A stretch of 64,000 nt of DNA from Octopus vulgaris (Eukaryota): the NCBI GenBank assembly GCA_951406725.2, contig OX597818.1, forward strand, positions 111,042,001 to 111,106,000, given 5' to 3'. The notes under the pieces were generated by a model that saw only the letters and a program-made list of their open reading frames with translations, was not told the DNA's origin and ran no database searches. Positions 82 to 35,454 of this stretch are shown one piece after another. The translations under genes were made by a program, and so were the position numbers. Each line of letters opens with the position of its first letter. Position 1 is the stretch's first letter.

Positions 82-115
82 CTTACGGCCTTTGAAGAAT
101 TCCTCTGCTACTTTC
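82..115 (-). CDS. Exon 19 (type B1, 34 nt): [11 protein letters not shown]
   Basis: ttcttttgcag|GAAAGTAG...GGCCGTAAG|gttagt; phase 2->0. Confidence 0.85.
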
Positions 116-3100
116 CTGCAAAAGAAACAAATAGACACATATTTTCAGCACATCATCACAATCATCATCATTACTTCTACATCAATTCACAAAAAGAACC
201 ATTACAGAACTGTTATTTTATGTTTGTACATTTTATTATTTAAATCTAAATCTAGAATTCATTTGAATAGGTTTAATCTCTGATTATTACCAGGCATCAT
301 ATTTGTGGATGTCTGTACAGTATGAAACTGGAATGTATTTAGCTTCCAAAAGATTTCTCTGTCAGAAAAAGCAGCCATGGTGAGTCGATGTCAGTTTTAG
401 GTTTATCTTAACTGGCTTCTTAACAAGAGCATGACTCTTGCTAATAGGTAAAGCATCTTAGTTTTCCAAAAGGAACAAATGAATAAATAATATCACAAAG
501 TATTATAAATGCTTCAAATTTTCATTAAGCTTGAAACTCGTGTTCATTCATTCAAATTAAGCTTCATTCAATTATTCTGGCAAAAGACTTTTGTCTTTGA
601 ATAACAAGTAATTCTTCATTATCTCGCTTCTATATTGCTCACTGGCCAGTCCATGGTCAGTTTTGGTAGCATATCAGGCATTTTAAGATGAGGTTGCAAA
701 CCCTCTGATTTAACCCTTCCCCAATTATAGAGACAAAGACACTGTGGATGTGCCCTAAGATATTTTATCCCTGGATTTGATTGGTAATTTATTTATCAGA
801 ACCAGGAGGATAGAAGGTAATGTTGACTTGTGTGGGATTTGAACTCATAGCAAAGCGTGCTGGAAAGAGAAGTACAACACTTTCAATCTGACACTCTTAT
901 GATCCTGTCAATTTCCACCAAACAAATACTTAGTAACTTTTTAACAGTCCTCTAAGCAAACATAGTTTAATAGCCACTGGAGTATGTGATAAATATTTTG
1001 GTATAAAACAAGAGAAACCTCAGTCATAATGCTGACTTACATGGAACTGCACCTTGTTACCACATTGTGATATCACAGATTGGTTAATGATACTTTTCGT
1101 CTCATTCCTTATTTGAATCATATGTCTTTTCACCCTTTAGTGTTGAAACTGGCTAAAACCAGCCAACGTTAAATCCCCTTTATTTGTTCAAACCAACCAA
1201 ATCTAACCGTATCCGACTGCTCTATGAAACTGCTAAAAAATAAACAAATCATGTTGCTGAATTCTCGTAGCTTTTAGATAATGTGCAATGAAGCCTTTCC
1301 CACTTTTATTCAAGTATAAATAGTGTGAAATTGTTTAAATCACATAGTTTTTTTCAATATTTGAAGAGAAGTCTGTAATTTGTTTTTAATGAAATGGCAT
1401 CAGTAAGTAGCAATTCTGACTTTGAAGGTTTTACTCTTGACGATATAGAAAATATAAATGAAAACAAGAGTATTTTGTCTTCGGATGAATCTGATATTGA
1501 TATTAGTGAATATTCATCAGATGAGGAAGATCTTGAGAATGAATGTGATAAAAATGAAAGTGATGAAAATGATATCATAAACATGGCAACATGGTCAAAG
1601 ATTACAGCACCAATCACTATTCCTGATTTCACAAAAAAACACTGGTCCACAACACAATTTACCTCATGATGCTCAACTATTGGACTATCTATTTTTAATT
1701 TTATTCAGAAAGTTTTTTTGAAACTGTTATGGAGGAAACAAACATATAATTTCTATTCGCGAAGGAAACAATCCGTTATGGCAGCCAACTTAAACTGTGG
1801 AAATGAGAACATTTTTCACAATCAATATTATGTTTGGTGTTAAACAGCTTTCTTGACTGTGAAACTACTGGAGTCCTGATATAAGGTATGCTGATCCATA
1901 TATGTCAAGCATAATGTTGAAGACAAGGCATTCAAAAATATCTCAGTATTTACATTCAATTAATTCTGCTAATGACCCCAACAAAAACAACCCAAAATAT
2001 GATCCCCTGTACAAAGTATGTCCTGTAATTGATTGCAAGTTACTTGGCAACCCTACTGGTGCTAGTGCCAAGTAAAAGTATCTGTATCAATGCCACATAA
2101 GGGCACTTGTGCCGTTGTCAGATTAGAAACCTCTATGCTGCTGCCACATAAAAAGCAACAAGAACACTCTGTAAAGTAGTTGGCATTAGGAAGGGCTTCC
2201 AGCTGTAGAAATAAAACCAAAACTGATTGGAGCCTATCTGTCTTCCATGCTGGCATGGGTTGCCCAATCTGAAGGAACTAGCAAGATGGAGAGCTGTAAC
2301 AGGCTCCAGTCATCTGCTTCAGCAAGGTTTCTATGGACAGATGCCCTTCCTAATGCCAACCACTTTACAAAGTGTACTGAGTGCTTTTATATGTGACACC
2401 AGCACAAGTTCTTGTCAATTGTTCAATTCATTTCAATGTGAACTGGGGAAAGAAATTATCTTGGACTGAAAATCCCCTCTTATTCTGTTTCTCTTCTGTC
2501 TCTGTTCTGTGGGTGTATGGAATAGGCTTGAACCTTTTGTCTTGCAGTTAAATACATGCAAACAAAAATTGTGTATTAAAAGTTGCGCAACCAGGATTTA
2601 CTGAAGTTGAAATACTGAACATAGATATTATGTGTTGCCTCATGAAAACAGTGTCATGACTCTTGTTACTATTTCCTACATTTATATTTCCTTATAGCGT
2701 TATCATATTTATACATCACAATCTCCTCATAATTCAAAGTCAAAATCAAACTTAAACAGAGTGTTATAAAATTACATACTTGATGTCTTCAGCTGACATA
2801 TTGTCTGGTTGTTCATTGAGTTTCTTTTCAAAAGCTTTATAATCCTAGAAGGGTTTACAATAAAAGCATTTGTTGTAACTTTATAATAAAATGCAATGAC
2901 TTAACATTAATAGTTCTATTTTGGACTGGTTAATGAAACAAAACATTATCTCACTTACATGAACACCTTAAAAAAAAAAACCTGATTTTTTTTCTCTATA
3001 CATGCTAACTTAGAATAAAGACACAGTTCTATATTTAAGAGATGAGGAATTATGTACATTATTTACACTTGACGGATATTTGTCCTCATCTTGTTTGTTG

Positions 3101-6100
3101 TTAACACATTTCGGCTGATATACCCTCCAGCCTTCATAAGGTGTCTTGGAGAAATTTTGAACCTGGGTTCTCATTCCTAAGGTATTTTTCGATGTTGTTG
3201 TTATTATTATTATTATTATTATTATTCAGGTCACTGCCTGGAATCGAACTCAGAATCTTGGGGTTAGTAGTCCGTGCTCTTAAACACTATGCCCACAGGC
3301 ATATGGCGTAGTGGCTAAGAGTGCGGGCTACTGATTCCAAGTTCGATTCCAGGCAGTGACCTCAACAACAGCAGCAACAACAACAACAAGATTGAAAAAT
3401 ACCTTAGGAATGAGAACCCAGGTTTGAAATTTCCCCAAGACACCTGATGAAGGCTGAAGTGTATATCAGCTGAAACGTGTTAACAACCAACAAGATGAGG
3501 ACAAATATCTGTCAATTGTAAATAATGTAAATTAGAATAAAGAGCTGAAGTCATTGACTAATAGGGGATATTGCCTAACTTGAGAAGTGATGCAGTAAAG
3601 GGATGTGACATAATACTACAATGCATTTCTTCTTGCACAGTCAACTGATTTTCATATTCCCTTCTTAAAAGAAGATTCTATGTAGTCACCAAAAGATAGC
3701 AACAAAATCTCCCTTAAATCTTGCAAAAAAAAATAAAGGGTGTGGCTGTGTAGTAAGTCTATTAGTTTACATTTGAAAGGAGGAATGGGTATTTCTCCTA
3801 CCAACCACAAACTCTACCTCTGCCTATCACCTGAAATGTTATTTCTTGTCCTATGAAAAGATAGAAAGCTATGTTGACTTCAGCAGAATTTTGAATCCAG
3901 AAATTCAAGAAAGGTGTTATGCTGTCATTTGATCTGCTCAGCTACATCTTCGTCAACTATCATCATCATTCAATGTCTGTTTTCCATGCTGGCATGGGTT
4001 GGACTGTCTGACAGGAGCTGACTAGGCTCCATGTCTACTTTTGTATTATTTCTATAGCTTGATGCCCTTCCTATTGCCAACCACTTTACCGAGTGTACTG
4101 GATGATTTTATGCATAACCAGCATGGGTGTGTATACATGGCATTTGACTGGGTGGATTTTATGTGGCTCCAGCACCCATGAGCCTCCAAGATTACGAATG
4201 TTGAGCTAGAGAAGGATGCAATGGGCATGCCTGTATGCAAGGCCGGCCACACTTCTACTTAGCTTGACATGTCTTATTAAGCACAGTAATCCACCAGGAG
4301 CCCCAGACCACATCATCCCCTTTGTAAGACCCAACATCCGAATATTCTCTCACCACTTTATCCTACATCTTCCTCTGGTCTACCCCTTCCACTTTAAAAT
4401 TGTTTTAAATAAATATTTCTGGAAGGGCAGGTTAGTTTCCATTTCCATTTCGTAGAGCTGGTTGTTGCTTGACCTCAACATTTGTAGAAAAAAACAAATG
4501 GATGGCGAGGAAATTTAGTCCAAATGCATGAAGGTGAAAGAATTCATACAAAAGGCACCCAAGAAGCAGATGGTGATGTGAAACTGGGTGGCATGTAAAG
4601 CCTGTAGCCAATTTTCTGATAAAACAATGGACTTTGATCAAAAACAAACAGCTGGTCATCTTATGTCTATATGAATGAAAATAACAAACTGTAGATTGGA
4701 AATCATCATCAATATCATAGTTTTAATATTCACATTTTATAGCTTTCATGGGTTTGGCAGAATTCGTTCACATAGATGTTTTTACATTGTAAGGATTTAA
4801 TGAGTTACTTTGGTCTTTAGATTCCCATAGAAAAACAATTGGAGCTAAACAACAATAACTGTAATAGTAACAGCAATAGCCACAAAAATCACAATCAATG
4901 CTTCTGCTGGTGCTAATGCTGCCGTTGCTGCTACTGGGGGTGGAGGTGCTGGTGCTGTTACCCTAACTATTTTAAAAAAGGAATACCCACAACAATTCAC
5001 CTTAAAAGCAAAACAATGCTAAATCTAAAAATGACTGTTAAGGGCTCTGGCTGGATGACTTAAACATATGAAACATAACAAGTCTGTGGTTAGGATGCTT
5101 AACTGTTTCAACTTACATTAACTGAGGATCTACTAACTTATTTCCAACAGCTACACAAACTCAATATGCTGCCTCGTACAAAATAAATAAGAACTAACCT
5201 TGCTCTCTCCAAAATGTTTTTTTGCGATAAATCTGCAAAAGAAAGGAACACACGTAATGACTATCATCATCAACATCATGATCATCATCATTTTTATGTC
5301 TCTAGACAAGGAAAAACATCATAAGATTATAACTTTTTGTACAACTTCATCTTGAGACATGAATTCTCTCTTAATATTGGAACCTACATTTGGACTTCAT
5401 TCAATTACTTCCATTTCTGAACCATATTACTAGTTTTATTCCTGGCTTAATGCATGGTTCCATATCATTAATATTTTAGCAAATACTAGCAGTATCGCCT
5501 GGCGTTGCTCGGGTTTGTAAGGGAAATAATTATATAAGCATTTTTAGAGATGTAAAGTATAATAGCCATCTCAATATGGCTAACCACAAAGGGGGAGGGG
5601 TGTTACTGTAGCTTTTTACGTTCTGAGATTTAATAATAAATTTTAGAGAGTTACTTCCCTTATATATGTCAAAAATGGATTAAAAATGGGAAAAATTGAT
5701 GGTAAATTTTTTTTTAAATCGTAGACTCATCGTAGACGCGCGCTAATACCCAGACGGTCTCGATATGAATCACGACTATAAGATACCTGGTTTTGGTTAA
5801 ACTGCACTGCAAAATGTGGGAGTAGTTAGGAATCTAAATCGTAGGAGACAGACACACAACCTCACTTTTATATATAAAGATTTCCTCTATTTACATAATA
5901 TTGAGGTCTCTTTCTTTCTTTTGTTATCTTACTGTTTTTACCAATATACATATATATATATATATATAAATATATATATAGTTACAGAGATGTACTTGCA
6001 TAGCAAGTGACTTGATCTGAGATCGTGTGCTGGAACGAAAACAGTTGCAGCGTTGAAGGTGTTTATAAGCCATTTAAGAAACACACAAAAACCGTTAGAT

Positions 6101-9100: not shown

Positions 9101-12100
9101 TGCTAGAAAATTTGAAAACCCTCGTCAGCACTGATTATTCATTTCATTTTGTTGGTAAAGGTTTGCTTTCATGGTGGTCTTTATCGACTTTTTAACATGC
9201 TCCCTCTTCATCTTCAACAAAGCCACCAAATTTGCGATGATTAATTACCCAGTGCATCTGCACCTCTGGGTGGGTTCAGAATCTGCAGAGGTTCAGTCAA
9301 ATGTGTTAAAAAACATATGCAATGGAAAGGTGAACGTAATTTCTAAAAACAAAGAAAGAGATTTAGCACAAAATTAGCACGATGACCCGGTGTTGCTGGG
9401 TCATAATGCTAGTTCTCAAATTAAAAATACAGCCTTTCTCATTTACAAAACAAACAGCTAAAGAAACAAAGAAATGAACAAAACATGTTACTGTGGACCT
9501 GTTTAGTTCTGTAGAGTGTTAGAGTAATCAAGAATGAGGCCAGACTGGAGTTTATATTGTAGTGGTCTTTGTGGTGTAAATGGACACCCTACAGATTAAT
9601 GAACCAAAGCTACATAGAAATCATAAGAGGATCACACCCTCAACAGGTCTGAGGTGTAGAATAACACTTGGGGCATTTGCTTGCTCATTTAGAAATGCAT
9701 AACAATTTGTCTCCTTGTTAAATATAATCAATTAAACACCAAAGATAAACTTGCAGCATGTAGAGTCTATTGACTTTGACTGTTGTTGTACATCATAACA
9801 ACGTATTCCCAAAGATGATTGTCTCTGAAGACTGGTCCTTAGGATTCACTTTAGTCATATTCCTGACAATAGAATCTGGCTACATCATCAATCTCGGCAT
9901 GACTTTTGGATTGGCAAAGAAGAAAAGAGATTAAATGGGTTTTTTTTTTTTTGTCAGAACATAAGGTATAGCAATTGAGAGGTAAAAACCATTTTCACTG
10001 ACCAGCTGTAGCTATTTAAACTCTTTGGCATTTAAAAGGGTTATATCCGGCCCAAATGTTCCACCGGCCTTATGTTCAAAATAGCCAGATCTGGCTTCTC
10101 ACACCTACCCTACAATCTCATTTTACAAATAAACAATCATCTCACGAAATTCTCAAAGCTCCAAGATAAATCATGATCAATTCAAAATGATGTGAATAAA
10201 GCAGCTTTACATTTGCCAGAGTAATCCGATTGCCAAACGGTTAATCATTGTGTCCGAAGTCAGGACGCCATGATAGATCGTCAACTTCTACACTTCTTGT
10301 TTTTTTCTGTGTATCTTTCTGTCGAAGAGCGTAGGCTTGAAACGTAAAAGACTTTTTCTATTTCTATTCCTGAGCGCTATATTAATACATTTGTTTGTTT
10401 GTACTCCACCTGCCTTCATCTTTTGTTTATTTTCATAAACTTACCCGTTCTATATATATATCTTTATATAGTCTTTATATGACTGGCTTCTTTCAGTTTC
10501 TGCCTAATAAATCTGCTCAGAAGACTTTGATAGCATTGCAGAAGATATTTGTCTAGGGTACCATGTAGTAGGACTGAACCTAGAACTATGTAGTAGAGAA
10601 GGACTTGAAATTTCAATGGACATGTTGTGCAGCATCTGTGTGGCTTCCATGGGGTACATGGAGACAAACGAGTTGGATCTCACAATGAGGACAGAACTAG
10701 ACTGCTGGAGTTCTGTGATGCAAATGACCTTATGATCTGTAATACTAACTTCAGCAAACCAGTCAGTCACCTGTTCACTTACAAATCTGGTAGTGACATA
10801 AATTAGATCGACTACATGGAAAAGGTGGCTCACTATAAATGCAAAGTCCTTCCCAAGTGAAAAGTGTACCCCACAACATAAGCTAGTCATAAGAGACCTC
10901 AGGCCTAGGGTTAGAATGATGCCAAGAAGCAAAGCAGTCTGGAAGCTTAAGAAGTCTCAGAATAGTCAGAGACTTGGAGACATATTCACTGAAGTATTTC
11001 ATGAGATACTAACATGTAACTTAGAAGAGAACTGAAAATTCCCATGTGACAACTTAATGGATGGTACAAACACCCACCTCAAACCTAAGGTGACATGGTG
11101 GTGGAACAGGGAAGTGTACAGGACCATTAGAGCAAATAAATGGGCCCAAAAGATACTGGAAAACTGGTAGTAACAGAGAACCATGTGAGACAGATAGAAG
11201 AGAGGCTAGGAGGCAGAAAAAAAGAAGTTCAAAAATGGTCTGTAGCATGATGACCAGAGGCTCAAGGGGTTTCAGATTGCAAAACAGTGTGTCAGAGAAA
11301 ATGGTGATACTGTAAGAGAGAACTGTGTTTGCATGAATAAGGGTTCTCTTGCATTTTAACGATTCTGCAAAGAAGGAGGCTTGGAATAGCCATTATGAAA
11401 GGCTGCTAAATGTAGAGAATGCATGAGAAAAGAAGAGTCTATCTAATGTGGACCAAACAGAGGGACCAGATTTCTGAATAGATAGTGTCTTGGTAGATAA
11501 AGCTTTGAAGGACATGAAGACAGGGAAATATCCAGCCCATCAGGGATCACTAATGAAATCTTTAAAATATATGGCCTAATCACCTGTATAGTTAATTAGG
11601 TTGGCTATGAAGGAACCATACACAAAGACTGGTGTAACAGCATGACAGTCAACTATTACAAAGGTAAATGTAATGCCTTAGGCAAAAATAATTACTGAAG
11701 TATCAAATTGCTGGAGCAAGTAATGAAAGTTACAGAGAGGGTTATAGCTCAAGTAATTAAGAAGACAGTTAATCTGGATGAGAAGTAGTTTGCTTTCATA
11801 CCAAGGAGAAGCACCATGATGCTATCTTTCTGGTAAGGCAACAGCAGGTGAAGCATTTAGCCAAGAATAAACCTCTGTACTTAGCTTTTGCTGATTTAGA
11901 GACAAGTCTTTGACATGGTTCCCAACTCCTTTATCAGATGCTCTATGTGGAAGCTAGGGATTGATGAGAGCTGTACAAGCCATGTACAGAGATGCTGTCA
12001 GTAAGGTGAAGGTCGACAACGAGTATAGCAATGAATTTAGTGTACAGGCAGGAGTTCACAAAGGATCAGTTCTCATGTCCCCCTTATTTATTATAATGCA

Positions 12101-15100
12101 CCAGGCCATAACAGATGAATTTAAGTATGGCTGCCCTTGGGAACTCTTCTATACGGATGACCTTGTTCTTATGGCTGATTCACTATCGGAACTAGAGAAG
12201 AAATTTCAGGTATAGAAGAGAATACATTAAGGATCTTCTCAATCTGATCAGGATAAGATCTTCTGGTTGACATGTGGTGCATCTAGGGCCAAAGGCTAAC
12301 CTCACAGACTCTGAAGTCATAGACGTGATTAAAGCAATCAAATGTCGCAAGACAGATGAAGTGGATGAAATTTCACCTGAGATGTTAAGAATATAAAAAA
12401 GAGAAGGTATTCTCTGGTTGGACTTCTAGAAGGACACCAAAACAATGGCGGTCTGGGGTGATAATCCCAATTTTGAAAAAAATGGAGAGAAAACTGAAGG
12501 AAACAAATGTTTGGACTAGGAATTCCTTGCTTTGTATATGTGTTATTCCTCATGCTGAACCACTAGGTTATGGGGATGTAAACACACCAACATCTCTCGT
12601 CAAGTGATGGTGATGGGACAAACACAGATATAATCACACACACGCATCAATATATACATACGACTGGCTTCTTTCAGATTTTGTCTACAATATTCACTTG
12701 CAAAGCTTTGGTCAGTCCAAAGAAACCATGTGGTTGAGAAGCAAGTTTCTTACCACACAGCTATGCCTGTTCAGTCAAGTAAAAAAAAAAAAAGATAGAG
12801 GGTATACAGAGGGCAGGGCTACTGGACAGCAATGATGTGAGGAAACAGGGCTGTGAGGATAGGATTGGGGAGTAAGCATAGTGCATCATCATTTAACATC
12901 AACATTATTTAACATCTGCCTTCCATGCTGGTATGGGTAGGATGGTTCACTAGGAACCATCCAGACAGAGGTTTGCATCAGACTTCTATGACTATTTTGG
13001 CAGAATTTTTACAGCTGGATGCATTTCCTAACACTAACCACTCAGCAGAGTGGACTTAATGCATTTCATGTGGCCAAGCACAGGTGAGGTCATTTTTGGC
13101 TTGGTTTTTACAGCTGAATACCCTTCCAAATGCCAATAACAGAATTTGAACTCAAAATGTAAAGACAGACCAAAATGCCACTAAGCATTATGCCTGTTGT
13201 GCTAACGATTCTATCAGCTCACCACCTTAAATTTTTTATATATCATTATATTGTGATCACATTTATACAAAACAATCTCCTCATTTCAATAAAGAAAAAA
13301 TCCAATTTAAACAAAATGTAATATAAATATTTACTTAGCTCTGTCTTTGTCAATATCTTCACTGTCCAGATCAGTCAAGAGAGGTCTGTAAGCCTGTAAA
13401 TATTCAAAAGGAAAGCATGTGTTTAGACTTTATAATAAAATAAATGATTTAATTGACTCTTCAATCAAACTGGATATTGCCTCACTTCCTGAAGCAATTG
13501 GTTGTTTTGCTTCTCTACATCCACAGCAACATCAAATTTCAGATATTTCAGGAACATTGGAATAATTCCAGAACATATAGTTTCAACCAACTTTGTACTG
13601 TAGGAAAATTAAAGTAATAATTTCTAAACAATGCACAAGATCACACATTTTGTAGGAGTCTAGTTCTTTGCCCACAGAACTCAACTAGTAAAGGGATGTG
13701 GTTTACTACTTAAAATTTTAACTTAAGTGACCTGGAATTCAGCCTATATCCAACCCAAGTATTCTACCTGTTTTATATTCACACCAACCACATCTGACTT
13801 CTCACACCTACCCTACAATGTCATTCTAAAAAGAAATAATCACACCACTCAAAGCCTTAAAGCTACAAGATAGTACATGATTAAATCAAAACAATGTGAA
13901 TAAATAGTCAGTATATTTGACAGAGGACTATGAATGCCAAAAGTTTAAACAACAATAACAAAAATAATATAATTAAATACGAATCCAATAGAAGAAACAA
14001 AGACTTTCTCTTTCATTAGTTTCAATATCAATGCTGCAGTGGGTACTTCTACCTCCACAAATTCAACAACTTTTTGTTGCTTTAACAAGCTTGAATGAAT
14101 GGGATGCTACACTGAACTCACTTGCATTTTATTTCAGAAATTGCAAACATTAAACTAGTATATCAAAATCTTGTATACCGTCAAGTCTCTTCCTCTTAAT
14201 GCTGTACCAAATTACCAATATTTGAAAGAGGTTTAGAATTCCAAAACAAAGTAGAGAAGCAAAATAAGTTTGGAGAAAAGAATAAATATAATTTCTATTT
14301 CTTAATAGAAAAAGGCCCTCACAAAAGGTTGCATATAATCATTTCATTTGCTTAATTATAGCAACTAAACTGTTATCAACTATCATCTTTGAAATGACAT
14401 CAGCTTATATTAAGTTCCTCGACTTCAGACAATGATCTACTAGAAAGACAAAACTTTTATATTTTTTAGAGGTTTGTCAGATGAGGCAAGTTAGTTTTTG
14501 GGACATTTTAGTATACCTGCCTCAGACTTGTAAGAATTTCAGTGTATGATGTTCAACCTGAATATCTGAAGGTAAAAAATAACCGGTGGAGAGGAACTGC
14601 TGATTTGGTCCAAATGCATGAAGGTGAGGGAATTACCAATAAGGTCACCCAAGAACCAATCTTTTAAATATTTTGGTAGAAAACAAGAGAAATCTCAGTC
14701 ATGACATCTCTAGTTAGAAACACATCAGAAAGAAAAGGTGACTTAGATGAAACTGCACCTTGTTACATACTGTGATGTCACAGGTAGGCTAATGATACCA
14801 TTTACCTTATTTCTTAAATGAATTATAAGTCTTTAGAAAAACCTTCATAGATGATAGAATGTTGAAGGTTTTTGCAGCTTTATTTTTAACCCTTTAACAG
14901 ATTATTCAGTGAAATGTAATTCATATTTATCCACATTGTTCTGAATTAGTCATGCATTATCTTGTAGATTTGGGGTTTTGATTATGTGATTGTATATGGA
15001 TAAAACCCAAACTGCATGTCATGTTTATCTCCACATGAGTGCAAATGAGGACTTGTAGATTGGATGTTGCTGCTGTTGCTGCTACTACTGGCACCACCAT

Positions 15101-18100
15101 GATCACCATTCCCACCACCACCATTACTACCACTACAGCTATTGCCACCACTACATTCACGGCATAACTGTTATGTTAACAAGTTATCAGGCTGAGGAAT
15201 AATTCATGTGCATTGTTTTTCAAATTTAATAATGCATGCAGAAATAAAATGCATTGGCTAAATTTTATGTGTTATTTGGAAGAGAACTTTTATGGATTTT
15301 TTAGTTTTTATGTATTTTCAGATCATTAAAATGGAATAACAAATGGACAAAACTGAGCATTTTCAACACCATTTGCCTTTAATCAAGATGTTAAGTCCAC
15401 CAAAGCTGCATGTGAGATTTGTGCTGTGTATGGATGAGGAGAAATGTCTCAAAGTACCCCTTGCTGTTGGCTTCTATTCCTCAAAAATACAAATTTTTAT
15501 CTCATGGACAAATCACACACACTGGTCAACCAATTAAGTTCAATTTTCCATTGACGGAAGGTTGTTCAGCACAGTTTTTTTATCATACTCGATCCAATCT
15601 GCCAATTCTCTGGTCATTTGATGTGGATTTTTGTGGAGATGTTCATTCAACCACTCTTCATCAAACTCAGTTGGTTGACTGGTGCGTGATCTGTCCTTGA
15701 TCTCAAAACTCCCATTTTTGAAGCACGTAAACCAACGGTGGGCAGTACTTTGAGGTATTGCTTTTTCTCCATGCATAGCACAAATCTTGCAAGCAGCTTT
15801 GGTGAGCTTAACACCTTGATTAAATGCAGAAAGCAAATGGTGTCATTTTAATGATCTGAAAATACATAAAACTCAATAAAATTAAAAAATCAAAACACAC
15901 TATTTTGTAGAGCAAAAAATTCTCTTTCAAAAACATAACATATTTTGCGAATGTATCTTATTTCTGCATGCATTTTTGAATTTGAAAAAAATGTTTATGA
16001 ATCATTCGCCAAGTCAATACACTGTTACAAGTCTTACCTGTAGCTAGGTTGTGGCTTAATATTAGACAACGTGAAGAGATTACTTGCTAGATCAATCCCA
16101 ACATTGACATGAATTGAAGGCAAATTGAAGGGCAAATTCTAAATAAAAAAGAAAAAAACACCACCTGCACTGGATTTGATCCTATGACCTAAGAACATGT
16201 AATTCAATATTTTATTCTTGCAACCATAGCATTTGTGCAGGTGTATATACTTTGGCAGTTTATAATTAAAATATGCTAAGATTTATTAACAAATCAGTTC
16301 TTTTTAGCTCTGTTGTTATTGTTTAGCCTTAAGTCAGCCCTAATCCAGTAGACCTATTATCCCAAAAGAATGGTTCTTATGACTAAACCAAATAAGGATA
16401 CTTTTGCAGGGCCTCCATCACTGGTTGGAAAAAGGGAGGATGAAACCATCACTTGTTTGGTATCATCAGACTATATACCTCAAGTGAATGCTTACTACAG
16501 AAGGAATTCCACTGAATGCATAGGAACAACTGGTGGTATTAGAATGGAAAAGAGATAAAATTTAACACCAAAGAACAAGTAAAGTCCATGCAAAAGAGCT
16601 TTCGAAGAGCTTGCTGCTGCCAAATTTCATACACAACATTTGGTTTGACCCCAGGTTAGGGGTTGAGTATTGAGATAGGTTCTGGAACCACATGATTGCA
16701 AAATAAATGCATATCAATGCTTGTGTCTGCTTTGTAGGTGTGAAAGTGGATGGCTGTATTTTAATGGATGTGGCAGTGGGTGTGTGGGTAAGACATTCAA
16801 TTTGAAACCACATGATTCCTGATTCAATCCCATTGCACAGCACCTTGGACAAGTGTTTTCTACCATAGTAATTGTTTGACCAATTCCTTGTGAATAAAAT
16901 TTGGTAGATGGAAACTGTGTAGAAGACCAGCTATTGCATGTACATTGAAGCCCCCCTCTGTCTACAGCACAATGTTATCTAAGGAAAAGACAAAGGCTAA
17001 TACAGCTTCACAGCAGTGTCACTACAAGCATAGCTGTGAGAAAGGAAAGAGCAGGATGAGATACCACAAGGCATCCAATCAGGACTGCTACTATTATTAT
17101 CAAATTCCTAAAGTGAAAGGTAGATTAACTTCATTGGTATTTGAACTCAGAATATAGACAACCAAGACAAATACCACAAAGCCTTCTACCTGATGCTCAA
17201 ATCAATCTGCCAATATACTGCATAGTAAATAAATCATATCAACTAACCTTAAAGTCGTGAAAGTATTTTTTCGCATATCTCCTGCAAAAGAAACAAACAT
17301 ATTTTCACCACATCATCACAATCATCTTCATAATTTATTTCTACATCAGCTCACAAAAAGAACCATTACAGAAATGCTATTTTGCGTTTGTACATTTTAT
17401 TATTTTAATCTAAATCTAGAATTCATTTCAATAGTTTTACTCTCTGAATATCACCAGGTGTCATATTTATGAATGTCTGTAGAGTATCAAACCTTCATCG
17501 ATTATTAATCTTGAAAGAATGCTGAAGTTTTTGCAGTTTTCTCAAAAATGTATTTGAATGAGTTTTTTTATGGAACTTTATAGGTTAATAGTATTATTTT
17601 CTCTTCTTAATTTTATTATGCAAGCTTTCTTTTCAGATGCATACTGTTGCTGTCCCCCATTCCTGAGTCTCATGGGATCACATCTTCAACACCTTCAATG
17701 TTTGAAGTGTCACACCCTAACAGTGGAAGGAACCTGTGAAGAGGTAGATTCAGAAAGACCTGGGATGAAGTGGTGAAGCACAACCTTCAAATGTTGGGCC
17801 ACACAGAGGCAATGACAAATAACCAAGACCTTTGGAGATATGCTCTGCTTAAGAAGACCCGGCAAGCCAAGTGATCATAGCAGTGGCCTAAGCCAGTGTC
17901 ACATAACCAGCTCATTTAAGTGTACCCTTCAAGTGTTGGGCAACATGCCACACTTGAGAAGACATGTCGAGTGAAGTGAAATTGATGTTGTGGCTGATAC
18001 CAGAACTACCTGACAGGCACCTGTGCTGGTGGTGCATAACAAGCACCATTTGAGCATGGTTGATGCTAGTGCTGTCAAACTGGCTCCCATACTGGTGGCA

Positions 18101-21100: not shown

Positions 21101-24100
21101 AAGGCAGCCAAGAATCCGATGGTGGTGTTAAACTATGTAGCATATAAACCCTGTAGGCAATTTTCTGAAAATACAAAGTTTTTTGATGAAAACCAAACAG
21201 CTGCTCATCTTAAATCGATATAAATGAAAATAACAGCCTGTAGATTGGAAATCATCATCATCATCATAGTTTTAACATTCATATTTCATAGCCTACATGG
21301 GTCTGGCAGAATTCATTCATGTCGATGTTTTTACAGTTTAAGGATTTAATGTGTGTCCTTGGTCTTTAGATTCTCATAGAAAAACATTTGGAGCTAAACA
21401 ACAATAACTGTAACAGTAACAACAATAACCACAAACATCACAGTCAATGCTGCTGCTGCTACTGGTGTTGGAGCTGGCATTGCTACCGGAAGTATTTTAA
21501 AAAAGGAATACCCACAGCAATTCACTTTAAAAGCAAAACAATGCTAAATCTAAAAATGATTGTTAAGGGCTCTGGCTGGATGACTTAAACATATGAAACA
21601 TAACAAGTCTGTGGTTAGGATGCTTAACTGTTTCAACTCACATTAACAGAGGATCTACTAACTTATTTCCAACAGCTACACAAACTCAATATGCTGCCTC
21701 ATACAAAATAAATAAATAATAAGAACTCACTGTTGTATATCCACAATGTTTTCTTGCTAGATCCCTGCAAAAGAAATAAAGGGACACATCATCATGACTA
21801 TCATCATTAACATCATGATCATCATCATTTCATCATTTTTGTGTCTCTAGACAAAGAAAAACATCATAAGATTATAACTTTTAGTACAACTTCATCTTGA
21901 GACATAAATTCTCTCTTAATATTGGAACCTACATTAGGACTTCATTTCAATTACTTCCATTTCTGAACCATATTACTAGTTTTATTCCTGGCTTAATGCA
22001 TGGTACCAGATCATTAATATTTTAGCAAATATTTACAAATATTTGCTTCAAATTTTTGCACAGGCCTGCAATGTCAACTGGTACTTATTTTATCAACCCT
22101 GAAAAGAAGGAAGGCAAAGGTGACCTTGGTACGATATGAACTCAGAATGTGAAGATGGACAAAATGCCGCAAAGCATTTTGCCTGGCATAGTAACGATTC
22201 TGCCATCTCACCACCATAGCAAACACAGAAATATTGAACTGATGTCACTACTGGCCTTACTAATTCCATTATTAGTAAGACGTATATGTCCTGATTCTTT
22301 GATTCTCATGAGTTTCCCACTTTGGAATTACGGAATCTTCATTCTATAGCATTATATTAATTCATTTCTCACTCCATATGTATTAAAATATTTATTCTAT
22401 CACTAAGGCTTTTCAATATTCTTCCATCCCAAACTTTAGAACCTCGCAGTGTTTCATGTACAAGGCCCTCCATAAATGCATGGCATGTTATAAATGCAGT
22501 TTTAATGTTCCAAATGAAACAATGCAGATGGAGATGCATAAAAAAAAACATTTTCATCTCAAAAGATGAAGTTAATAATCTGAAAAACTTATAATCACAT
22601 CTGTAATAAATCATCTCAAACATTTACATATTTAAGAAACATTATTCTCAAATTCAAAATACAGCCTTTCTCATTTACAAAACAAACAGCCAAAGAAACA
22701 AAGAAATAAACAAAACATGTTACTGTGGACCTGTTTAGTTCTGTAGAGTGTTAGAGTAATCAAGAATGAGGCCAGACTGGAGTTTATATTATAGTGGTCC
22801 TTGTGGTGTAAATGGACACCATACAGATTAATGAACCAAAGCTACATAGAAATCATAAAAGAGGATTACACCTTCAACATGTCTGAGGTGTTGAATAACA
22901 CTTGGGGCATTTGCTTGCTCATTTTCATATGCATAACAATTTGTCTCTTTGTTAAATATTATCAATTAAGCACCAAAGATAAACTTGCAGCATGTAGAGC
23001 CCATTGACCTTGGCTTTTGTTATACATCATAACAACGTATTCCCAAAGATGATTATGTCTCTGAAGACTGGTTCTTAGGATTCATTTTAACTATATTCCT
23101 GACAGTAGCATCTGGCTTACACCAGCAGTCTAGGCATAACTTTTGGATTGGCAAAGAAAAAAAGTAGTTTTGTAAAAAAAAATATTTATATCACAACTTC
23201 AAATATTGCAAATGACAGATGAAAACCAATTTTCACTGACCAGCTGTGGCTATTTAACACTTTGGCATTTCAACAAGCTATATCCTGCCCAAATATTCCA
23301 TTTGCTTTCTCCTCAAAATAGCCACATCTGGCATCTCACTCCATGCAATAACAGAGGATATAATTTATATCTTCATTATATTTGTTTCTGTCATTAGACT
23401 GTGGCCATGCTGGGGCACTTCCTTCAAGAATTTTAATTGAACAAATGAACCCCTGTATATATTTTTAAAAACCTAGTATTAGCTTTGTTGGTCTACTTTG
23501 CAGAACCTCTGTGTCATGGTGATGGAAGCACAACACTGGTCTTCAAGCAGAGGTTTGGGACAAACACAAAGTCACACATGCACACACAGATGCAGACATA
23601 GTATATAGACTTACATATATATATATACATATACACACACACACATATATATACATGATAGGCTTCTTTCAGTTTCTGTAAATAATTCCACCCATGAGAA
23701 TTTGGTAGCCTTGAGGCTATAACAGAAGACATTTGCCTAAGGTGCCATGCAGTGAGACTGAACCTTGAACCATCATCATCATCATTTAACATCTGCTTTC
23801 CATGCTGGCATGGGTTGGATGGTTTGACAGAGGACTGGTGAACCAGAGGCAGCACCACTCTCAATCTGATCTGGCAAATTTTCTACAGCTGGATGCCATT
23901 CCTAACACCAACCACTCCAAGAGTGTAGTGAGTGCTTTTAAGTGCCACCGGCACGAAGGCCAGTCAGGCGGTTCTGACAACGACCATGCTCAAAAGGTGT
24001 TTTTTACATGCTACCTGCATAGGAGCCAGTCTGGCGGCACTGGCAATGACCACACTTGAATGTTGTTTTTCACTTGCAACCAGCACATGTGCTGGTGGGG

Positions 24101-27100
24101 CAACTCTGGCAATGATCACACTCGAATGGTGCTTTTCACATGTCACCAGTATGGGAGCCAATCCGTTGCCCTGGCAACAATCATGCTTGCATGTGCTTTT
24201 AACATTCCACTGGGATGAGTGCCAATCAGGCAGTACAGTCATCGGCCATGTCAGCAATTTTGATTTTGATTTCACTTGCCTCAGTGTCTTCAAAAGCCAG
24301 GTTTATTGTCCAATGAATGGGGAGTATCATGGTCTCACTTGGCTTGTTAGGTCTTCTGAAGAACAGCATATTTCCAAAGGTCTCAGTCACTAGTCATTGC
24401 TTCGGTAAGGTACAATGTTCGAAGGTCGTGCTTCGCCACCCCAACTCAGGTTTTCTTGGGTCTACTTCTTCTACAGGTTCCCTCAACTGCTAAGCTGTGA
24501 CACTTTCTCACACAGCTGTCCTCATTCATTCGCAATACATGACCATAGCAGCGCAGTTGTCTCTCTTGCACACCACATCTGATACTTCTTAAATCCAACT
24601 TTTCTCAGGAAAGACTTGTAATTTCACAGATGCTGAGTAGCATCTGTGTGGCTTCCATGGGGTACATGGAGACAAATGAGTTGGATCTCACAATGAGGAC
24701 AGACCTAGACTGCTGGAGTTCTGTGATGCAAATGACCTTATGATCTGTAATACTAACCTCAGCAAACCAGCCAGTCACCTGTTCACTTACAAATCTGGTA
24801 GTGACATAAATTAGATCGACTACATGGAAAAGGTGGCTCACTATAAATGCAAAGTCCTTCCCAAGTGAAAAGTGTACCCCACAACATAAGCTAGTCATAA
24901 GAGACCTCAGGCCTAGGGTTAGAATGATGCCAAGAAGCAAAGCAGTCTGGAAGCTTAAGAAGTCTCAGAATAGTCAGAGACTTGGAGACATATTCACTGA
25001 AGTATTTCATGAGATACTAACATGTAACTTAGAAGAGAACTGAAAATTCCCATGTGACAACTTAATGAGGGCCATTGACCAAATTAATGGATGGTACAAC
25101 CACCCACCTCAGACCTAAGGTGACATGGTGGTGGAACAGGGAAGTGTACAGGACCATTAGAGCAAATAAATGGGCCCAAAAGATACTGGAAAACTGGTAG
25201 TAACAGAGAACCATGTGAGACAGATAGAAGAGAGACTAGGAGGCAGAAAAAAAGAAGTTCAAAAATGGTCTGTAGCATGATGACCAGAGGCTCAAGGGGT
25301 TTCAGATTGCAAAACAGTGTGTCAGAGAAAATGGTGATACTGTAAGAGAGAACTGTGTTTGCATGAATAAGGGTTCTCTTGCATTTTAACGATTCTGCAA
25401 AGAAGGAGGCTTGGAATAGCCATTATGAAAGGCTGCTAAATGTAGAGAATGCATGAGAAAAGAAGAGTCTATCTAATGTGGACCAAACAGAGGGACCAGA
25501 TTTCTGAATAGATAGTGTCTTGGTAGATAAAGCTTTGAAGGACATGAAGACAGGGAAATATCCAGCCCATCAGGGATCACTAATGAAATCTTTAAAATAT
25601 ATGGCCTAATCACCTGTATAGTTAATTAGGTTGGCTATGAAGGAACCATACACAAAGACTGGTGTAACAGCATGACAGTCAACTATTACAAAGGTAAATG
25701 TAATGCCTTAGGCAAAAATAATTACTGAAGTATCAAATTGCTGGAGCAAGTAATGAAAGTTACAGAGAGGGTTATAGCTCAAGTAATTAAGAAGACAGTT
25801 AACCTGGATGAGAAGTAGTTTGCTTTCATACCAAGGAGAAGCACCACTGATGCTATCTTTCTGGTAAGGCAACAGCAGGTGAAGCATTTAGCCAAGAATA
25901 AACCTCTGTACTTAGCTTTTGCTGATTTAGAGACAAGTCTTTGACATGGTTCCCAACTCCTTTATCAGATGCTCTGTGTGGAAGCTAGGGATTGATGAGA
26001 GCTGTACAAGCCATGTACAGAGATGCTGTCAGTAAGGTGAAGGTCGACAATGAGTATAGCAATGAATTTAGTGTACAGGCAGGAGTTCACAAAGGATCAG
26101 TTCTCATGTCCCCCTTATTTATTATAATGCTCCAGGCCATAACAGATGAATTTAAGTATGGCTGCCCTTGGGAGCTCCTCTATACTGATGACCTTGTTCT
26201 TATGGCTGATTCACTATCAGACCTAGAAGAAATTTCAGGAATGAAAGCAAGGTCTGCAATCAAATGGAGTTAAGTTAGTAAAGACCAAAGTCCTAGTAAA
26301 TAGAAAACATGGAAATCACAAATCCTCTCAAGGAGATGGCCCTGCTCTATATGTCAGAAAGGTGTCAGTAGCAACTCCATACAGTGTACCGAGTGCAAGC
26401 TATGGACACTTAAGAGATGCAGTGATACCATAGGAAGGTTAACAGAGATATTGGACTTTGCATGAGGGAGATGTGCAGTAACAGTAAACACTAAGAACAA
26501 ACAGAGAATAGACTTCCTCAAATGCCTGGTGGGAATCTTTAGAAGTAGCAGAAAACTTTTGTTACCTAGGTGAACATGTCAGCAGTGGAGGAGTAAGTTC
26601 TGAAAGTGTAGCTGTCAGAATTAGAATAGGCTAGACAAAGTTCAGAGAGCTACTATCTTTGTTGGAAAGAAAATTCCTCTCCCTCACTGCGAATGGCAAA
26701 TCGTATGATACCTATGAAAGTACAGCTATGCTGCATGGCAGTGGGACATAGGTTATGGATATAGAGGACCTGAGAAGGCCTGAAAGAAATGCAGCCAAGA
26801 TGTTCAGCAGTGTGGGTAAAATCAGTGTGCATGTACAACAGAGACTAAAAGCTTTAAGTCAAGAATTAGGCAAAAATAAGAAGCCCTTTGGTACACTTGG
26901 ATGAAAAGATGCAGCAGAGAGAGTAAAAACCCCAAGGCTATGTCATAGGAGGACTCTGAGGTTAAGCTGGACTCTGATTAAAGTATTCTGGCAGAATATC
27001 TTCACCGTAACAAGAAGCCCTCTTCCACTCCTGCCATTAAGAATTCAGCTGGAATTCCTCTCTCTAAAAAGAAGAATATTCTTTGGATTGGAAGAGAATA

Positions 27101-28751
27101 CATTAAGGATCTTCTCAATCTGATCAGGATGGAATCTTCTAGTTGACTTGAGGTGCATGTAGGGCCAAGAACTAACCTCACAGAGGATGAAGTCATAGAG
27201 GTGATTAAAGCACTCAAACGTTGCAAGACAGATGAAGTGGATGAAATTTCATCTGAGATGTTAAGAAAATTAAAAAGAGAAGGTATTCTCTGGTTGATTT
27301 GTGTATAGCAGGTAGCATGGACTTCTGAAAGGACACCAAAACAATGGCAGTCTGGGGTGATGATCCCAATTTTGAAAAAGGGAGAGAAAACTGAAGGAAA
27401 CAAATGTTCGAACTAGGAATTCCTTGCTTTGTATATGTATTATTCCTTGTTTCTGTTCTGGGTTGATATAAAAACTATGAAAGTTACATGACAAGGAATT
27501 ATTCAAATTGAAATACTGAATATAAATATATTTGTCATGGATACTTTTATTATTTTCTACATCACCATCATCATCATCATCATCACCATCACTATCACTT
27601 AACATCTGTTGTCCAAGGTGGCAAGGGTTGGTTGCTTTGACCAGAAATGGTAAGGTGAGGGGCTGTACCAGGCTCCAGTCTGATTTGGTATCGTTTCTAT
27701 GCTTGGATGCCCTTCCTAACACCAACCACTCCAAGAATGTAATGGGTACCTTTATGTGCCACCTGCATGAGTGCCAGCTGTATGACACTAATATCTGCCA
27801 CGACTACAATGCCATTTAGCTTGATGGGTCTTCTTCTCAAGCACAGCATATTATCAAAAGTCTCAGTCATAGTTCATTGCCTCCATGAGGCCTGATGCTC
27901 GCCATTATCATGATCATGATGATGACAATCATCATCATCATTTAACATCCACCTTCCATGTTGGCATGGGAGGGATAGTTTCACAGGAGCTGGCCAGGCA
28001 GACTTATGTGTCTGTGTTAGCAGGGTTTTTACACTATCCACCCAGTGGAATGGACTGAGCGATCTTTACATGGCCAGTTTTGACAAGGTTTTCACAGATG
28101 GATGCTCTTCCAAATGCCAACCATTTTACAGTATAAACTGAATGCTTTTTAAGTGGCACAGGCACTGACAGGGTTACCAAGTAACTTGCAAGAAAAAAAT
28201 CTTTTGGAAGGGGAAGGGGCATTGCAGGAGGTGATCTAAGATGATGAATTGTTATAGTGAGCCAGAGGAGGTGGAAGATTACCTGGCCCGAGGGAGTGGG
28301 GAGAGATCAGGAATGGGGACAGAAACAGGTGTGTTGCCCTGAAGGAGATACAGGGTTACCAAACCTGAAGGAAGAGCAGAAGAATGAAAAAGAGGGAGGG
28401 AAATAATGAGAGAAATGGTGGCGAAATGCAGGGCATACTAACAAGGGATGGAGATAAGAATATAAAGGGGAAGGTGAAGCAAGTACAACAAAGACAGAGG
28501 GAGAGGGTAGCATATCCTTGAGGTTCAAAGGTCATAATGCAAGTGATAGGTCATTACCAAAGAAGCGTTGAGTAGAGAGTGAGGAAGGGAAATGCAGTGA
28601 GTGGTGAAAGCATGGATATATAAAACGGGGAGCTACTGGACAGAAATGATGTAGAGAAATAGTGAGGCCAAGATTGAGGAGTGAGAGGTAAGCATAGTGC
28701 ATCATCATTGTTTAATGTCTGCCTTCCAAGCTGGCATGGGTGAAATAGTTT

Positions 28752-28788
<37 letters not shown>

Positions 28789-31700: not shown

Positions 31701-34700
31701 TATCAATTTCAAAAAGTGAAAGGTGAAATTAACTTCACTGATATTTGAACTCAGAATGTAGACAACAAAGACAAATACTGCAAAGCCTTCTACCCGATGC
31801 TTGAATCTCTCTGCCAATATACTGCATTGTAAATAAATCGTATCAACTAACCTGAGAGTCTTCGAAGTGTTTTCTTGCAAGTCTCCTGCAAAAGAAACAA
31901 ACACATGTTCATCACATCATCACAATCATCATCATTACTTCTACATCAATTCACAAAAGGAACCATTGCAGAACTGTTATTTTATGTTTGTACATTTTAT
32001 TATTTAAATCTAAATCTAGAATTCATTTGAATAGGTTTAATCTCTGATTATCACCAGGCATCATATTTGTGGATGTCAGTACAGTATGAAACTGGAATGT
32101 ATTTAGCTTCCAAAAGATTTCTCTGTCAGAAAAAGCAGCCATGGTGAGTTGATGTCAGTTTTAGGTTTATCTTAACTGGCTTCTTAACAAGAGCATGACT
32201 CTTGCTAATAGGTAAAGCATCTTGGTTTTCCAAAATGGACAAAGGAACAAATAATATTACAAAGTATTATAAATGCTTCAAATTTTCATTAAGCTTGAAA
32301 CTCATGTTCATTCATTCAAATTAAGCTTCATTCAATTATTCTGGCAAAAGACTTTTGTCTTTGAATAACAAGTAATTCTTCATTATCTCACTTCTATATT
32401 GCTCACTGGCCAGTCCTTGGTCAGTTTTGGTAGCATATCAGGCAATTTAAGAAGTGGTTGCAAACCCTTTGATTTAACCCTTCCCCAATTATAGAGACAG
32501 AGACACTGTGGATGTGCCCTAAGATATTTTACACAGCACAATGACACAGTGAAGAAGTTAAGAAAGTTCAATTCATTTCTTTTGTTCTTGACTACAGTTC
32601 ATTATTTCAATGTGAACTGGAGAAAGAAATGATTCTGAATTGAAAATTCTCCCCTTATTCTGTTCCTCCCCTGTCTCTGTTCTGTGGGTGTATGGAATAG
32701 GTTTGAGCCTTTTGTTTTTCAGTTAAATACATACAAACAAAAATAGTGCATTAAAAGTGGCATAACAAGGACTTTCTGAAGTTGAAATACTGAACATATA
32801 TATTTAATTATGTCTCTTACTATTTCCTATATTTACACATCTTTATATTGTTATCATATTTATACATCACAGTCTCCTCATAATTAAAGATAAAAATTAA
32901 ATTTAAGCAGAATGTTATAAAATTACTTACCTGACATCTTCACCGTCAAAATCTTTGGCATAGTTATCAATTTCTTTTGTGAATTCTTTATATTCCTAAA
33001 AAAGTTTACAATAAAGACAATAAATGCAATGATTTAACATTAATAGTTCTATTTTGGATTGATTTCGACTCTTCAATGAAACAAAACATTACCTGACTCA
33101 CAGAAACACTTAAACAAAAAAAACCAACTAAATCTTTTCTCTATATATGCTAAATTCCAGTAAAGAGCTGAAATCATTCACTGATGGGGGATATTACCTA
33201 ACTTGAGAAGTGATGCACTAAAGGGATGTAACATAATACTACAAGGCATTTCATCTTGCACTGTCAACTGATTTTGATATTCCCTTCTTAAAAGAAGATT
33301 CTATGCAGTCACTAAAAGATAGCAACAAAATCTCCCTTAGATCTTGAAAAAAAAAAGAAAAAGACAAAAAGAAAGGCATGACTGCATGGTAAGAAATTGG
33401 TTTCCTAACCACATGACTCTAGGTTCAGTCCTACTGTGCAACTTTGGGCAAGTGTCTTCTACTATAGCCTTGGGCCAATCAAAATCTTGTGAGTTTGTGA
33501 GTAGATTTAGTTACAGAGACTGAAAGAAGACTGCTACACACACCCACACACACACACACACACACGAGTGTGTGTGCATCTTTGTTTGTCCTGAACCATT
33601 GCATGACAACCAGTGTTGGTGTGTTTATGCACCAATAACCTAGCAGTCCACCAAAAGTGATCAACAGAATAAGTACCAATCTTAAAAACAATAGGTACAG
33701 GGGTTGAGTCATTCCACTAAAAATTATGAAAGGTGGTACCCCAGCATGGCCACAGTCTAGCAACTGAAACAAGATGAAAGATATATTGGATAATGCTGTA
33801 TCAAGATACACAGTGAGTTCATTAGCTTCTATTTCAAAGGAGGAATGGGTACTTCTCCAACCAGCTACAATCACTACTGCTGCCTATCAGCTAAATTGCT
33901 GTATGTTGTGTTATCAGACATGAAAAGATGGAAAGCTATGTTGACCTCCGCACAATTTTGAATACAGAAATTCAAGAAAAGTGTTAAGCTGTCATTTGAT
34001 TGCTCAGCTAAATCTTCATCAACTATCATCTTTAAAATGTCTTAAACACGTTTGTTAGAAGGGGCAGGTAAGTTTCCATGATATTTTGGTAGCCCTGTCT
34101 CAGACTTGTAAGGATTTCCATGTATGTTGTTCAACCTCAACATCTGAAGGAAAAAAAATGTATGGAGAGGGAACTGCTGATTTCATCCAAATGCATGAAG
34201 GTGAGAGAATTCATACTAAAAGCACCCAAGAAGCAGATGGTGGTGTTAAAGTGAGTGGTATGTAAGACCTGTAGCCAGTTTTCTGATTAAACAAAGGACT
34301 TTGATCAAAACCAAACAGCTGGTCATCTTATGTCCAGATGAAGGAAAATAACGACCTATTGGAAATCATCATCATCATCATCATCATAGTTTTAATATAC
34401 ACATTTCATAGCTTACATGGGTCTGGCAAAATTCATTCACATAGTATTTTTACAGTGTAAGGATTTAATGTGTGTCCTTGGTCTTTAGACTCTGATGGAA
34501 AGACAACTGGAGCTAAACAACAAAAACTGTAATAGTAACAGCAATAGCCACAATAGTCACAATCAATGGTGCTGCAGCTACATCCACAATGTTTACATGC
34601 ATTTTAAAAGAGGAATACTCTCAACAATTCAACTGCAAAAGCAAAGAAAAATCATAAATCTTAAAATGACTGTTAAGGGCTCTCGCTCGATGAGATAAAA

Positions 34701-35454
34701 CATATGAGAGATAACAAGTCTGTGGTTAGGATGCTTTTCTGTTTCAACTCACATTAACAGAGGATCTACCAACTTATTTCCAACAGCTACACAAACTCAA
34801 TATGCTGTCTTTTACTAAAATAAATAAATAGTGAGAACTCACTTTTGTATATCCACAATGTTTTCTTGCTAGAGCCCTGCAAAAGAAATAAAAGGACACA
34901 CATCATCATCATGATCTTCATCATTTTTATGTCTTGAGACAAAGATGAACATCATAAGAATATAACTTTTATATAATTTCAGGAGAGGGCTAAGTCAATT
35001 ACATTGACCCCACTGCTCAATTTTTATTTATTCTATCGAACGTGAAAGGATGAAAGTCAACTGCAATAGAATTTGAACTCAGGATTGGGGAGTGAGAGGT
35101 AAGCATAGTGCATCATCATTTAACATCATCATTATTTAACATCTGCCTTCCATGCTTGTATGGGTAGGACGGTTCACTAGGAACCATCCAGACAGAGATT
35201 TGCACCAGACTTCTATGACTATTTTGGCAGAATTTTTACAGCTGGATGCCCTTCCTAACACTAACCACTCAGCAGAGTGAACTTAATGCATTTCATGTGG
35301 CCAAGCACAAGTGAGGTCAGTTTTGGCTTGGTTTTTACAGCTGGATACCCTTCCAAATGCCAATAACAGAATTTGAACTCAAAATGTAAAGACAGATCGA
35401 AATGCTACTAAGCATTATGCCTGTTGTGCTAATGATTCTATCAGCTAAACACCT

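Follow-up and report, generated by a model that had tools for sequence, protein, structure and literature searches.

Introns that stay alike between paralogous sequences while the exons stand apart are known from the red and green opsin duplicates of primates, for which a part of Fawcett and Innan 2011 (PMC3924837) describes a 'peak of divergence' under gene conversion. The present analysis concerns a stretch of 64,000 nucleotides (nt) of Octopus vulgaris (assembly GCA_951406725.2, contig OX597818.1, positions 111,042,001 to 111,106,000; hereafter the window), whose minus strand carries, from position 1 to 64000, the middle of a single 94-exon repeat gene that extends beyond both window ends. 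Like the opsins, this gene combines apparently homogenized introns between paralogues with exons that are closer to their orthologues than to their paralogues. It differs in presenting 74 such peaks within a single gene, with four intron classes, over about 240 kb and with exons that are still changing fast, and in having no known functional residues. The exon/intron pattern is already known from the opsins, and what is new is its scale and its occurrence in a likely UBA-derived repeat protein.

Other systems share single features. In the phospholipase A2 (PLA2) genes of snake venoms, accelerated evolution has reportedly carried the exons past their introns, and the octopus gene resembles these genes in its more divergent exons and in a ratio of replacement to silent divergence (dN/dS, omega) at or above 1. 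'Accelerated evolution' is the term applied to venom PLA2 and serum-protein genes in at least part of PMC6609765. The octopus gene is unlike venom PLA2 in being a single gene with internal repeats, in showing direct signs of intron conversion and in having a product without venom-type secretion; its mean dN/dS, at 1.0–1.26, is not distinguishable from 1, with a site class at 1.8–2.2. The NBPF/Olduvai (DUF1220) arrays likewise consist of a lineage-expanded two-exon module in tandem, with a higher-order repeat; Olduvai HLS copies resemble each other fairly closely according to a part of PMC11725983, whereas the octopus repeats are 35% identical and show no match to that family by Pfam. Exon–intron units of fixed phase amplified into repeat proteins are also common to the octopus gene and a multi-gene system, the latter having thousands of genes and one repeating exon, the former one gene and a two-exon, helical unit that is not a leucine-rich repeat.

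We examined 340 kb of surrounding DNA; coordinates outside 1–64000 are extrapolated window coordinates, and the contig position equals the window position plus 111042000. A gene model obtained by mapping the Octopus sinensis protein XP_036358878.1 back onto the genome has 94 exons and 2,064 amino acids, with AG/GT at all splice sites, no internal stop, and intron phases alternating between 0 and 2 along the gene (0,0,2,0,2,...). From an ATG at extrapolated position 143869, all on the minus strand, 13 N-terminal exons with four UBA-like segments extend to 94480, the repeat array (37 short and 37 long exons, residues 384–1573) runs from 89801 to -148625, and 7 C-terminal exons with a SEP-like segment and an Ala/Glu/Lys tail run from -151181 to -178066. 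In a splice-site scan, short exons, 34 of the 37 being 34 nt long, alternate strictly with long ones of 56–65 nt to make up the 74 repeat exons, and their lengths change only in steps of three. One long and one short exon form a unit of mostly 32–33 residues, giving 37 helical repeats, and flank identity sorts the units into two classes, odd and even, within which flanks are mostly 84–98% alike.

How far have the exons outrun the introns? An earlier note on the window had claimed from hand counts that paralogous exons diverge more than their own introns, and this turns out to be general, since for 444 of 449 same-class pairs the p-distance of the exons is larger than that of the introns (the pairs are not independent; each has 200 or more aligned flank nt, and those with fewer were dropped). 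Its counts could be reproduced for exons 82–115 and 31852–31885 (20 of 34 nt identical), for exons 2780–2844 and 32931–32995 (36 of 65 nt) and for introns 181–470 and 31945–32235 (284 matches, 6 mismatches, 97.9%). The count for 2521–2629 against 40401–40509 also stands (102/109, 93.6%) but concerns the flank of another pair, 2844 versus 40723; the proper pair, 2844 versus 32995, has 41 differences in 342 nt of flank (88% identical), against 55% identity in the exon. The outcomes that the note named as refuting its claim do not occur: all 74 repeat exons are in frame, bounded by AG and GT and free of stops. Their hydrophobic anchors are invariant in character. Over the 449 pairs, mean intron divergence (K) is 0.113 (slightly lowered by flank trimming; fixed windows give 0.119), whereas exon dS is 0.56 and dN 0.57, with a mean dN/dS of 1.02 (0.84–1.21, exon bootstrap), so that exon divergence is four to five times intron divergence at silent and replacement sites alike. 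At four-fold degenerate sites the Kimura two-parameter distance is 0.45, against 0.12 in introns, a ratio of 4.4 (3.1–6.0); the excess persists at non-CpG-prone sites (0.44, n=158) and in transversions alone (0.20 versus 0.054). Acceleration without conversion, simulated on a star tree at omega 1, 5 and 7, yielded four-fold p-distances of at most 0.20 in 90 runs, against 0.34 observed; the same simulations do reach the 35% amino-acid identity seen between repeats. Because simulation without conversion falls short of the observed silent divergence, the silent sites of the exons must be older than the introns, and by scaling they amount to about 3.7 times the divergence of the Octopus bimaculoides split.

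The units themselves must be old. For 34 of 40 O. bimaculoides exon peptides the best match is the positional orthologue, and 16 of 17 O. bimaculoides repeats group with theirs in a tree; because the repeats match by position, the units predate the split from this species, which is placed at 13–34 million years, with a mean autosomal dS of 0.123, in a part of PMC10925132 and at 34 million years in a part of 10.1101/2023.05.16.540928. Even so, different units are linked by 111 tracts of 350 nt or more at an identity of at least 95%, of which only 5 span an exon, and units 1/3, 6/32, 6/8, 8/32 and 9/27 share tracts of 577–1,299 nt at 97–98%. Six of the best tracts differ by 2–3%, against 11% expected from the genome-mean dS of 0.123 (binomial p<1e-16 each), and halving the neutral rate would still leave the tested tracts improbable (p 2e-4 to 5e-11). 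Since the units are old and their intron tracts are nevertheless 97–98% alike, the introns were likely converted after the O. bimaculoides split. One of these intron pieces is specific to the array and does not behave as a dispersed element, and an even-class intron piece recurs at 12 further sites of the array with 94–97% identity. Pairwise divergences correlate at 0.21 and 0.53 within an intron and at 0.13 across an exon, trees of adjacent flanks disagree, and the nearest neighbor of a unit shifts from intron to intron. The flank trees are star-like, with lengths of 0.46–0.83 for clean flanks, the only ones retained because insertions in several flanks inflated the fixed-window lengths. The note's proposal that introns are converted while exons are protected is supported both by the four-fold excess and by the shared tracts, and we consider it highly probable, from sequence comparison, that conversion keeps the introns alike.

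L17 and L19 (-13655 to -14302 versus -29508 to -30156, extrapolated) share an upstream intron 99.4% identical and their first 13 codons, and then diverge, so that a tract appears to end inside the exon. L15-S15-L16 is nearly a copy of L5-S5-L6 and S16 is similar to S12, so that the L15-S16 region looks like a chimeric duplication. Eight exons (S14 to L18; window 82–5232 to extrapolated -27085) are absent from the O. sinensis model.

Where did the repeat gene come from? Its N-terminal part matches UBA-like families by Pfam (PF14555, UBA_4, E 3e-8, and PF22566, E 7e-7, on protein query P0002; three stretches each on query P0003). An intact p47-type gene lies head-to-head with it, 27 kb away on the plus strand (start at extrapolated 170530), with UBA, SEP and UBX-like pieces. 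NSFL1C/p47 (UBXN2), a UBA-SEP-UBX cofactor of p97, and the octopus gene share a UBA-like N-terminus, the same phase-0 UBA intron, the SEP intron positions and adjacent loci; unlike p47, the octopus gene has at least four UBA-like segments, a 1,190-residue repeat insert, a SEP segment below Pfam detection and an Ala-rich tail, and lacks SHP and UBX. No SHP-type motif was found in the protein by a regular expression, nor any UBX match by Pfam, the protein ending in the Ala/Glu/Lys tail. The repeat profile, anchored at the phase-0 intron and aligned gap-free, matches the last 19 residues of the p47 UBA exon (shuffle p=0.0015) and three of five segments of its own protein at p<0.02 (UBA1 0.006, UBA2 0.013, UBA4 0.003; UBA3 0.08, fifth candidate 0.9). 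The SEP-like segment starts, and is split, at both p47 SEP intron positions; in local alignment its match is weak, with p=0.001 against a UBXN11-like SEP. A second SEP-domain exon, presumably UBXN11-like, was noticed on another contig (C21). The gene is likely a p47 derivative and not a member of the NSFL1C/p47 (UBXN2) family, and a p47 origin seems to us probable. Hydropathy revealed no signal peptide or membrane helix (19-residue maximum 0.11 at the N-terminus and 1.24 overall, in the Ala tail); because these are missing and UBA-like domains are present, the product is predicted to be intracellular, not secreted, which speaks against a secreted toxin-like or a cell-surface gamete protein and corrects the note's guess at function.

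Only Octopus and Argonauta yielded homologues. The last exon matched XP_036358878.1, an uncharacterized O. sinensis model of 1,935 residues with the same exons in order, and 6 matches were obtained among 1.84 billion representatives (one from O. sinensis, four near-consecutive models from Argonauta hians and an unnamed fragment), the O. bimaculoides pieces being found separately. Three of the Argonauta models gave 22 profile matches, 9 of which cover enough of the repeat for a tree (33 columns, many forks open); the Argonauta repeats cluster by themselves within the odd class and within the even class, so that the odd–even pair likely predates the Argonauta split, each lineage having diversified its own copies. 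Modeled with AlphaFold on a 4-row alignment, P0005 (mean predicted local distance difference test score, pLDDT, 63; 84–89 for residues 11–60; 71–135 poor) has two helices per repeat, with structural matches at residues 7–73 and 133–206, from which we infer that an even and an odd repeat together form one helical bundle. Foldseek returned no match to the P0005 model at E<=0.001, and the VIA-align hits, Af1502 as the best (Z 6.3, root-mean-square deviation 2.9, 63 aligned) and Sin3B PAH1 (Z 4.9, deviation 3.2, 62 aligned), are at background level for helical bundles; such a lack of structural match would not make the fold a new one. A single-sequence AlphaFold model of P0003 was unusable (pLDDT 37), Pfam found nothing on 27 single long exons, sequence searches of the PDB with P0002 and P0004 gave only E>0.5, and the ESM Atlas gave no usable match. 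No literature on this gene was found among open-licence papers (supplements, possibly under other ids, being outside this scope), and searches of that literature for the six accessions, octopus NSFL1C and cephalopod UBA/p47 returned unrelated papers or none.

Based on these analyses, we propose the following model, which we favor as rather likely: an intact octopod gene derived from a p47 duplicate, whose introns are kept alike by conversion and whose exons are kept distinct by selection. The p47 UBA exon and the next exon would have been remodeled into a two-helix unit, then doubled into an odd–even pair predicted to form a single four-helix bundle of 65 residues, and unequal crossing over would have multiplied the pair into about 18 bundles. 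Conversion between units of the same class would repeatedly reset the introns to about 11% divergence, and exons would keep their full age because selection mostly removes any tract that writes over an exon, or because such tracts halt where the exons mismatch. The hydrophobic core would be conserved, with surface positions under diversifying selection. We speculate that the protein is an intracellular multivalent binding array, a ubiquitin-pathway scaffold uncoupled from p97, in an arms race in which each bundle presents its own, different surface to fast-changing partners of a host–parasite or germline conflict. SEPT-1 of Caenorhabditis elegans, described in a part of PMC13411925, offers an earlier example of a SEP-type protein engaged in conflict; it has 166 residues and no repeat array, and the octopus gene has no known linked antidote or distortion.

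The case for selection draws on comparisons between species. Relative to O. sinensis, 28 of 1061 residues are changed in the repeats and 3 of 585 in the N- and C-terminal parts (p=0.002), the repeats thus changing about five times faster; relative to O. bimaculoides, with 22 misaligned residues of P0006 dropped, the counts are 175 of 620 and 116 of 585 (p=7e-4). dN against O. bimaculoides is at least 0.17 for the repeats, at least 0.10 for the N part and at least 0.12 for the C part. Four contigs of the sequencing runs X3 and X4 differ at 13 of 198 exon nt, 12 of these being replacements, and at 14 of 891 intron nt, in a region that was picked for differing from O. sinensis and is so biased, and from contigs that could be extra copies. 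In run X13, two spliced versions of S29-L30 occur (extrapolated -92256 to -91427), the first agreeing with this genome and the second with the O. sinensis model, separated by several replacements and no visible silent differences; they may be balanced alleles, or stem from pooled animals or an extra copy. Residue 1295 has four variants across this genome, X13, X3 and X4. Selection on the exons is likely, if not proven; that it acts on binding surfaces and thereby keeps the exons distinct we rate at somewhat better than even. Diversifying selection, one of the causes raised by the note, fails in the simulations as the sole cause and is retained as a likely component, and each repeat may have its own function.

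Several points weigh against this model. The six tested tracts were chosen from the best of 111 and judged by a dS that is a genome mean, not a local value. There is no clear divergence shoulder beside the exons (0.07–0.14 at 10–40 nt versus 0.08–0.12 far off), which counts against it because long tracts with a barrier of selection only predict one; we infer short or mismatch-stalled tracts on top of selection. Some exons were converted or duplicated whole (S9=S27, L5=L15; 5 of 449 pairs). Codon models fitted to 14 odd and 15 even repeats out of the 37, with branch lengths only rescaled, give an M0 omega of 1.19–1.26, not different from 1; the better fit of M2a than of M1a (p=3e-4 and 1.5e-3; site class omega 1.8–2.2) speaks for selection, in a type of test that conversion can inflate. 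The ratio of position 2 to four-fold divergence is 0.96 (0.69–1.33). The N and C parts also change fast relative to O. bimaculoides, and part of the fast change may be due to relaxed constraint or to a mutation rate that is locally high. As to the p47 origin, hhalign of repeat against UBA gives P=0.055, Pfam finds no PF08059 (SEP) match in the protein, and local alignment of the SEP-like segment with the p47 SEP gives p=0.06.

It is conceivable that the introns are converted and the exons stand apart for another reason. Near-identical neighboring domains are said, from work on titin Ig domains, to misfold or domain-swap, and the octopus repeats might need only to stay unlike, through avoidance of misfolding or through mismatch block of conversion, their surfaces being near-neutral and the array a spacer. 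This is the main rival, and we hold it to be possible if rather unlikely. A mean omega of about 1, conservation mainly at the hydrophobic anchors (the main conserved positions of the repeats), sharp exon edges without a shoulder, a repeat number that varies by the eight exons absent from O. sinensis and the parallel divergence of the Argonauta repeats would all suit a spacer. Set against it are the site class with omega near 2, the dN of at least 0.17 beside a genome dS of 0.123, the replacement hot spot of X3/X4 (a region chosen for its differences), and the tolerance of identical repeats 5 and 15, though these are non-adjacent. More doubtful is a p47 exon that gave rise to a new fold in incirrate octopods, as an intracellular recognition array with about 18 hypervariable bundles under ongoing and in part balancing selection and with the introns as a homology scaffold along which exons would be duplicated, exchanged and micro-converted, the whole acting as an MHC/NLR-like generator of diversity within a single gene, in immunity or germline conflict.

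Pure acceleration in the manner of venom genes, with an array that grew not long before O. bimaculoides split off and then diverged by positive selection or local hypermutation without any conversion, would explain why mean intron divergence among orthologue-bearing units (p 0.11) is near the species dS of 0.123, and agrees with the star-like trees and the M2a signal. It is largely refuted by the 4.4-fold excess at four-fold sites, unmatched in simulations at omega 5–7, and conflicts with the 97–98% tracts between units older than the split, the disagreement of trees of adjacent introns and the tract end within L17/L19; we regard it as very improbable. Purifying selection on intronic splicing or regulatory elements in place of conversion is hardly tenable: exons of 34 nt may need intronic enhancers, and the even-class piece alike at 12 other places would fit them, but the similarity spans kilobases, is broken by many insertions (35% repeat-like) and changes its nearest neighbor from intron to intron.

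Within the window, on the minus strand throughout, the array runs from S15 to S6. S15 (82–115; 34 nt, phase 2 to 0, odd class) is preceded by an intron (149–767) that is 96.9% identical to 31913–32531 of unit 11, 97.4% to part of unit 27 and 96.8% to the parent unit 5, and is thus no closer to its parent than to units unrelated to it. L15 (2780–2844; 65 nt, phase 0 to 2) is identical to L5 beyond the window, apparently by recent unit duplication. There follow S14 (5199–5232; even class, from the splice-site scan), L14 (13335–13393; 59 nt), S13 (17248–17281), L13 (19849–19904; 56 nt), S12 (21731–21764), L12 (30601–30662; 62 nt), S11 (31852–31885), L11 (32931–32995; 65 nt), S10 (34843–34876) and L10 (35581–35642; 62 nt). 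An inferred conversion tract of 1,299 nt (37975–39273), 98.0% identical to unit 27 beyond the window, spans S9 (38958–38991), which is identical to S27. Beyond L9 (40659–40723; 65 nt) and S8 (43772–43805), an intron tract (44037–44985) is 97.1% identical to 63439–64391, joining units 8 and 6, each of which has its own O. bimaculoides orthologue. L8 (52863–52924; 62 nt), S7 (57595–57628), L7 (61596–61660; 65 nt) and S6 (63031–63064) complete the set. A repeat-like insertion is 98.7–99% identical between 10631–12210 and 24639–26239 (introns of units 14 and 12), being either one recent insertion that was copied from unit to unit or a pair of young copies, and 1390–2040 holds a degenerate acidic, by eye transposase-like sequence common to the unit 5 copy.

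The array appears to be spliced as one series. Contigs of sequencing run X13, by our guess RNA, join S28-L29 and L29-S29 at the predicted sites, skipping introns of 730 and 913 nt exactly, with loose ends that reach into L28 and L30; a splice joint sought in run X5 was not seen. Consecutive exons are joined in X13 and in the O. sinensis model, unlike the mutually exclusive choice of Dscam, occasional skipping being possible. A 401-nt probe has 31 matches in the 2.8-Gb genome, all on the same contig within about 220 kb, and no second locus emerged among 8 scored candidates. An assembly artefact was rejected, as the units differ from one another and have one-to-one counterparts in other species. 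TPR and apolipoprotein identities for the array were dropped for lack of Pfam support, as was a neuropeptide precursor built on a 75-bp repeat; that repeat is instead a palindromic minisatellite that lies in intron 7 (extrapolated 121500–123600) and includes an inverted block.

With dozens of replicate peaks of selection against conversion in one gene, tract length and barrier strength become directly measurable, and so does the old dispute over whether exons outrun introns by acceleration or by conversion. The likely parent gene next door, together with the intact intron positions, preserves a record of how a repeat protein may arise from a UBA exon. An uncharacterized, octopod-restricted and fast-evolving protein of this kind is a candidate for a role in cephalopod immunity or genetic conflict.

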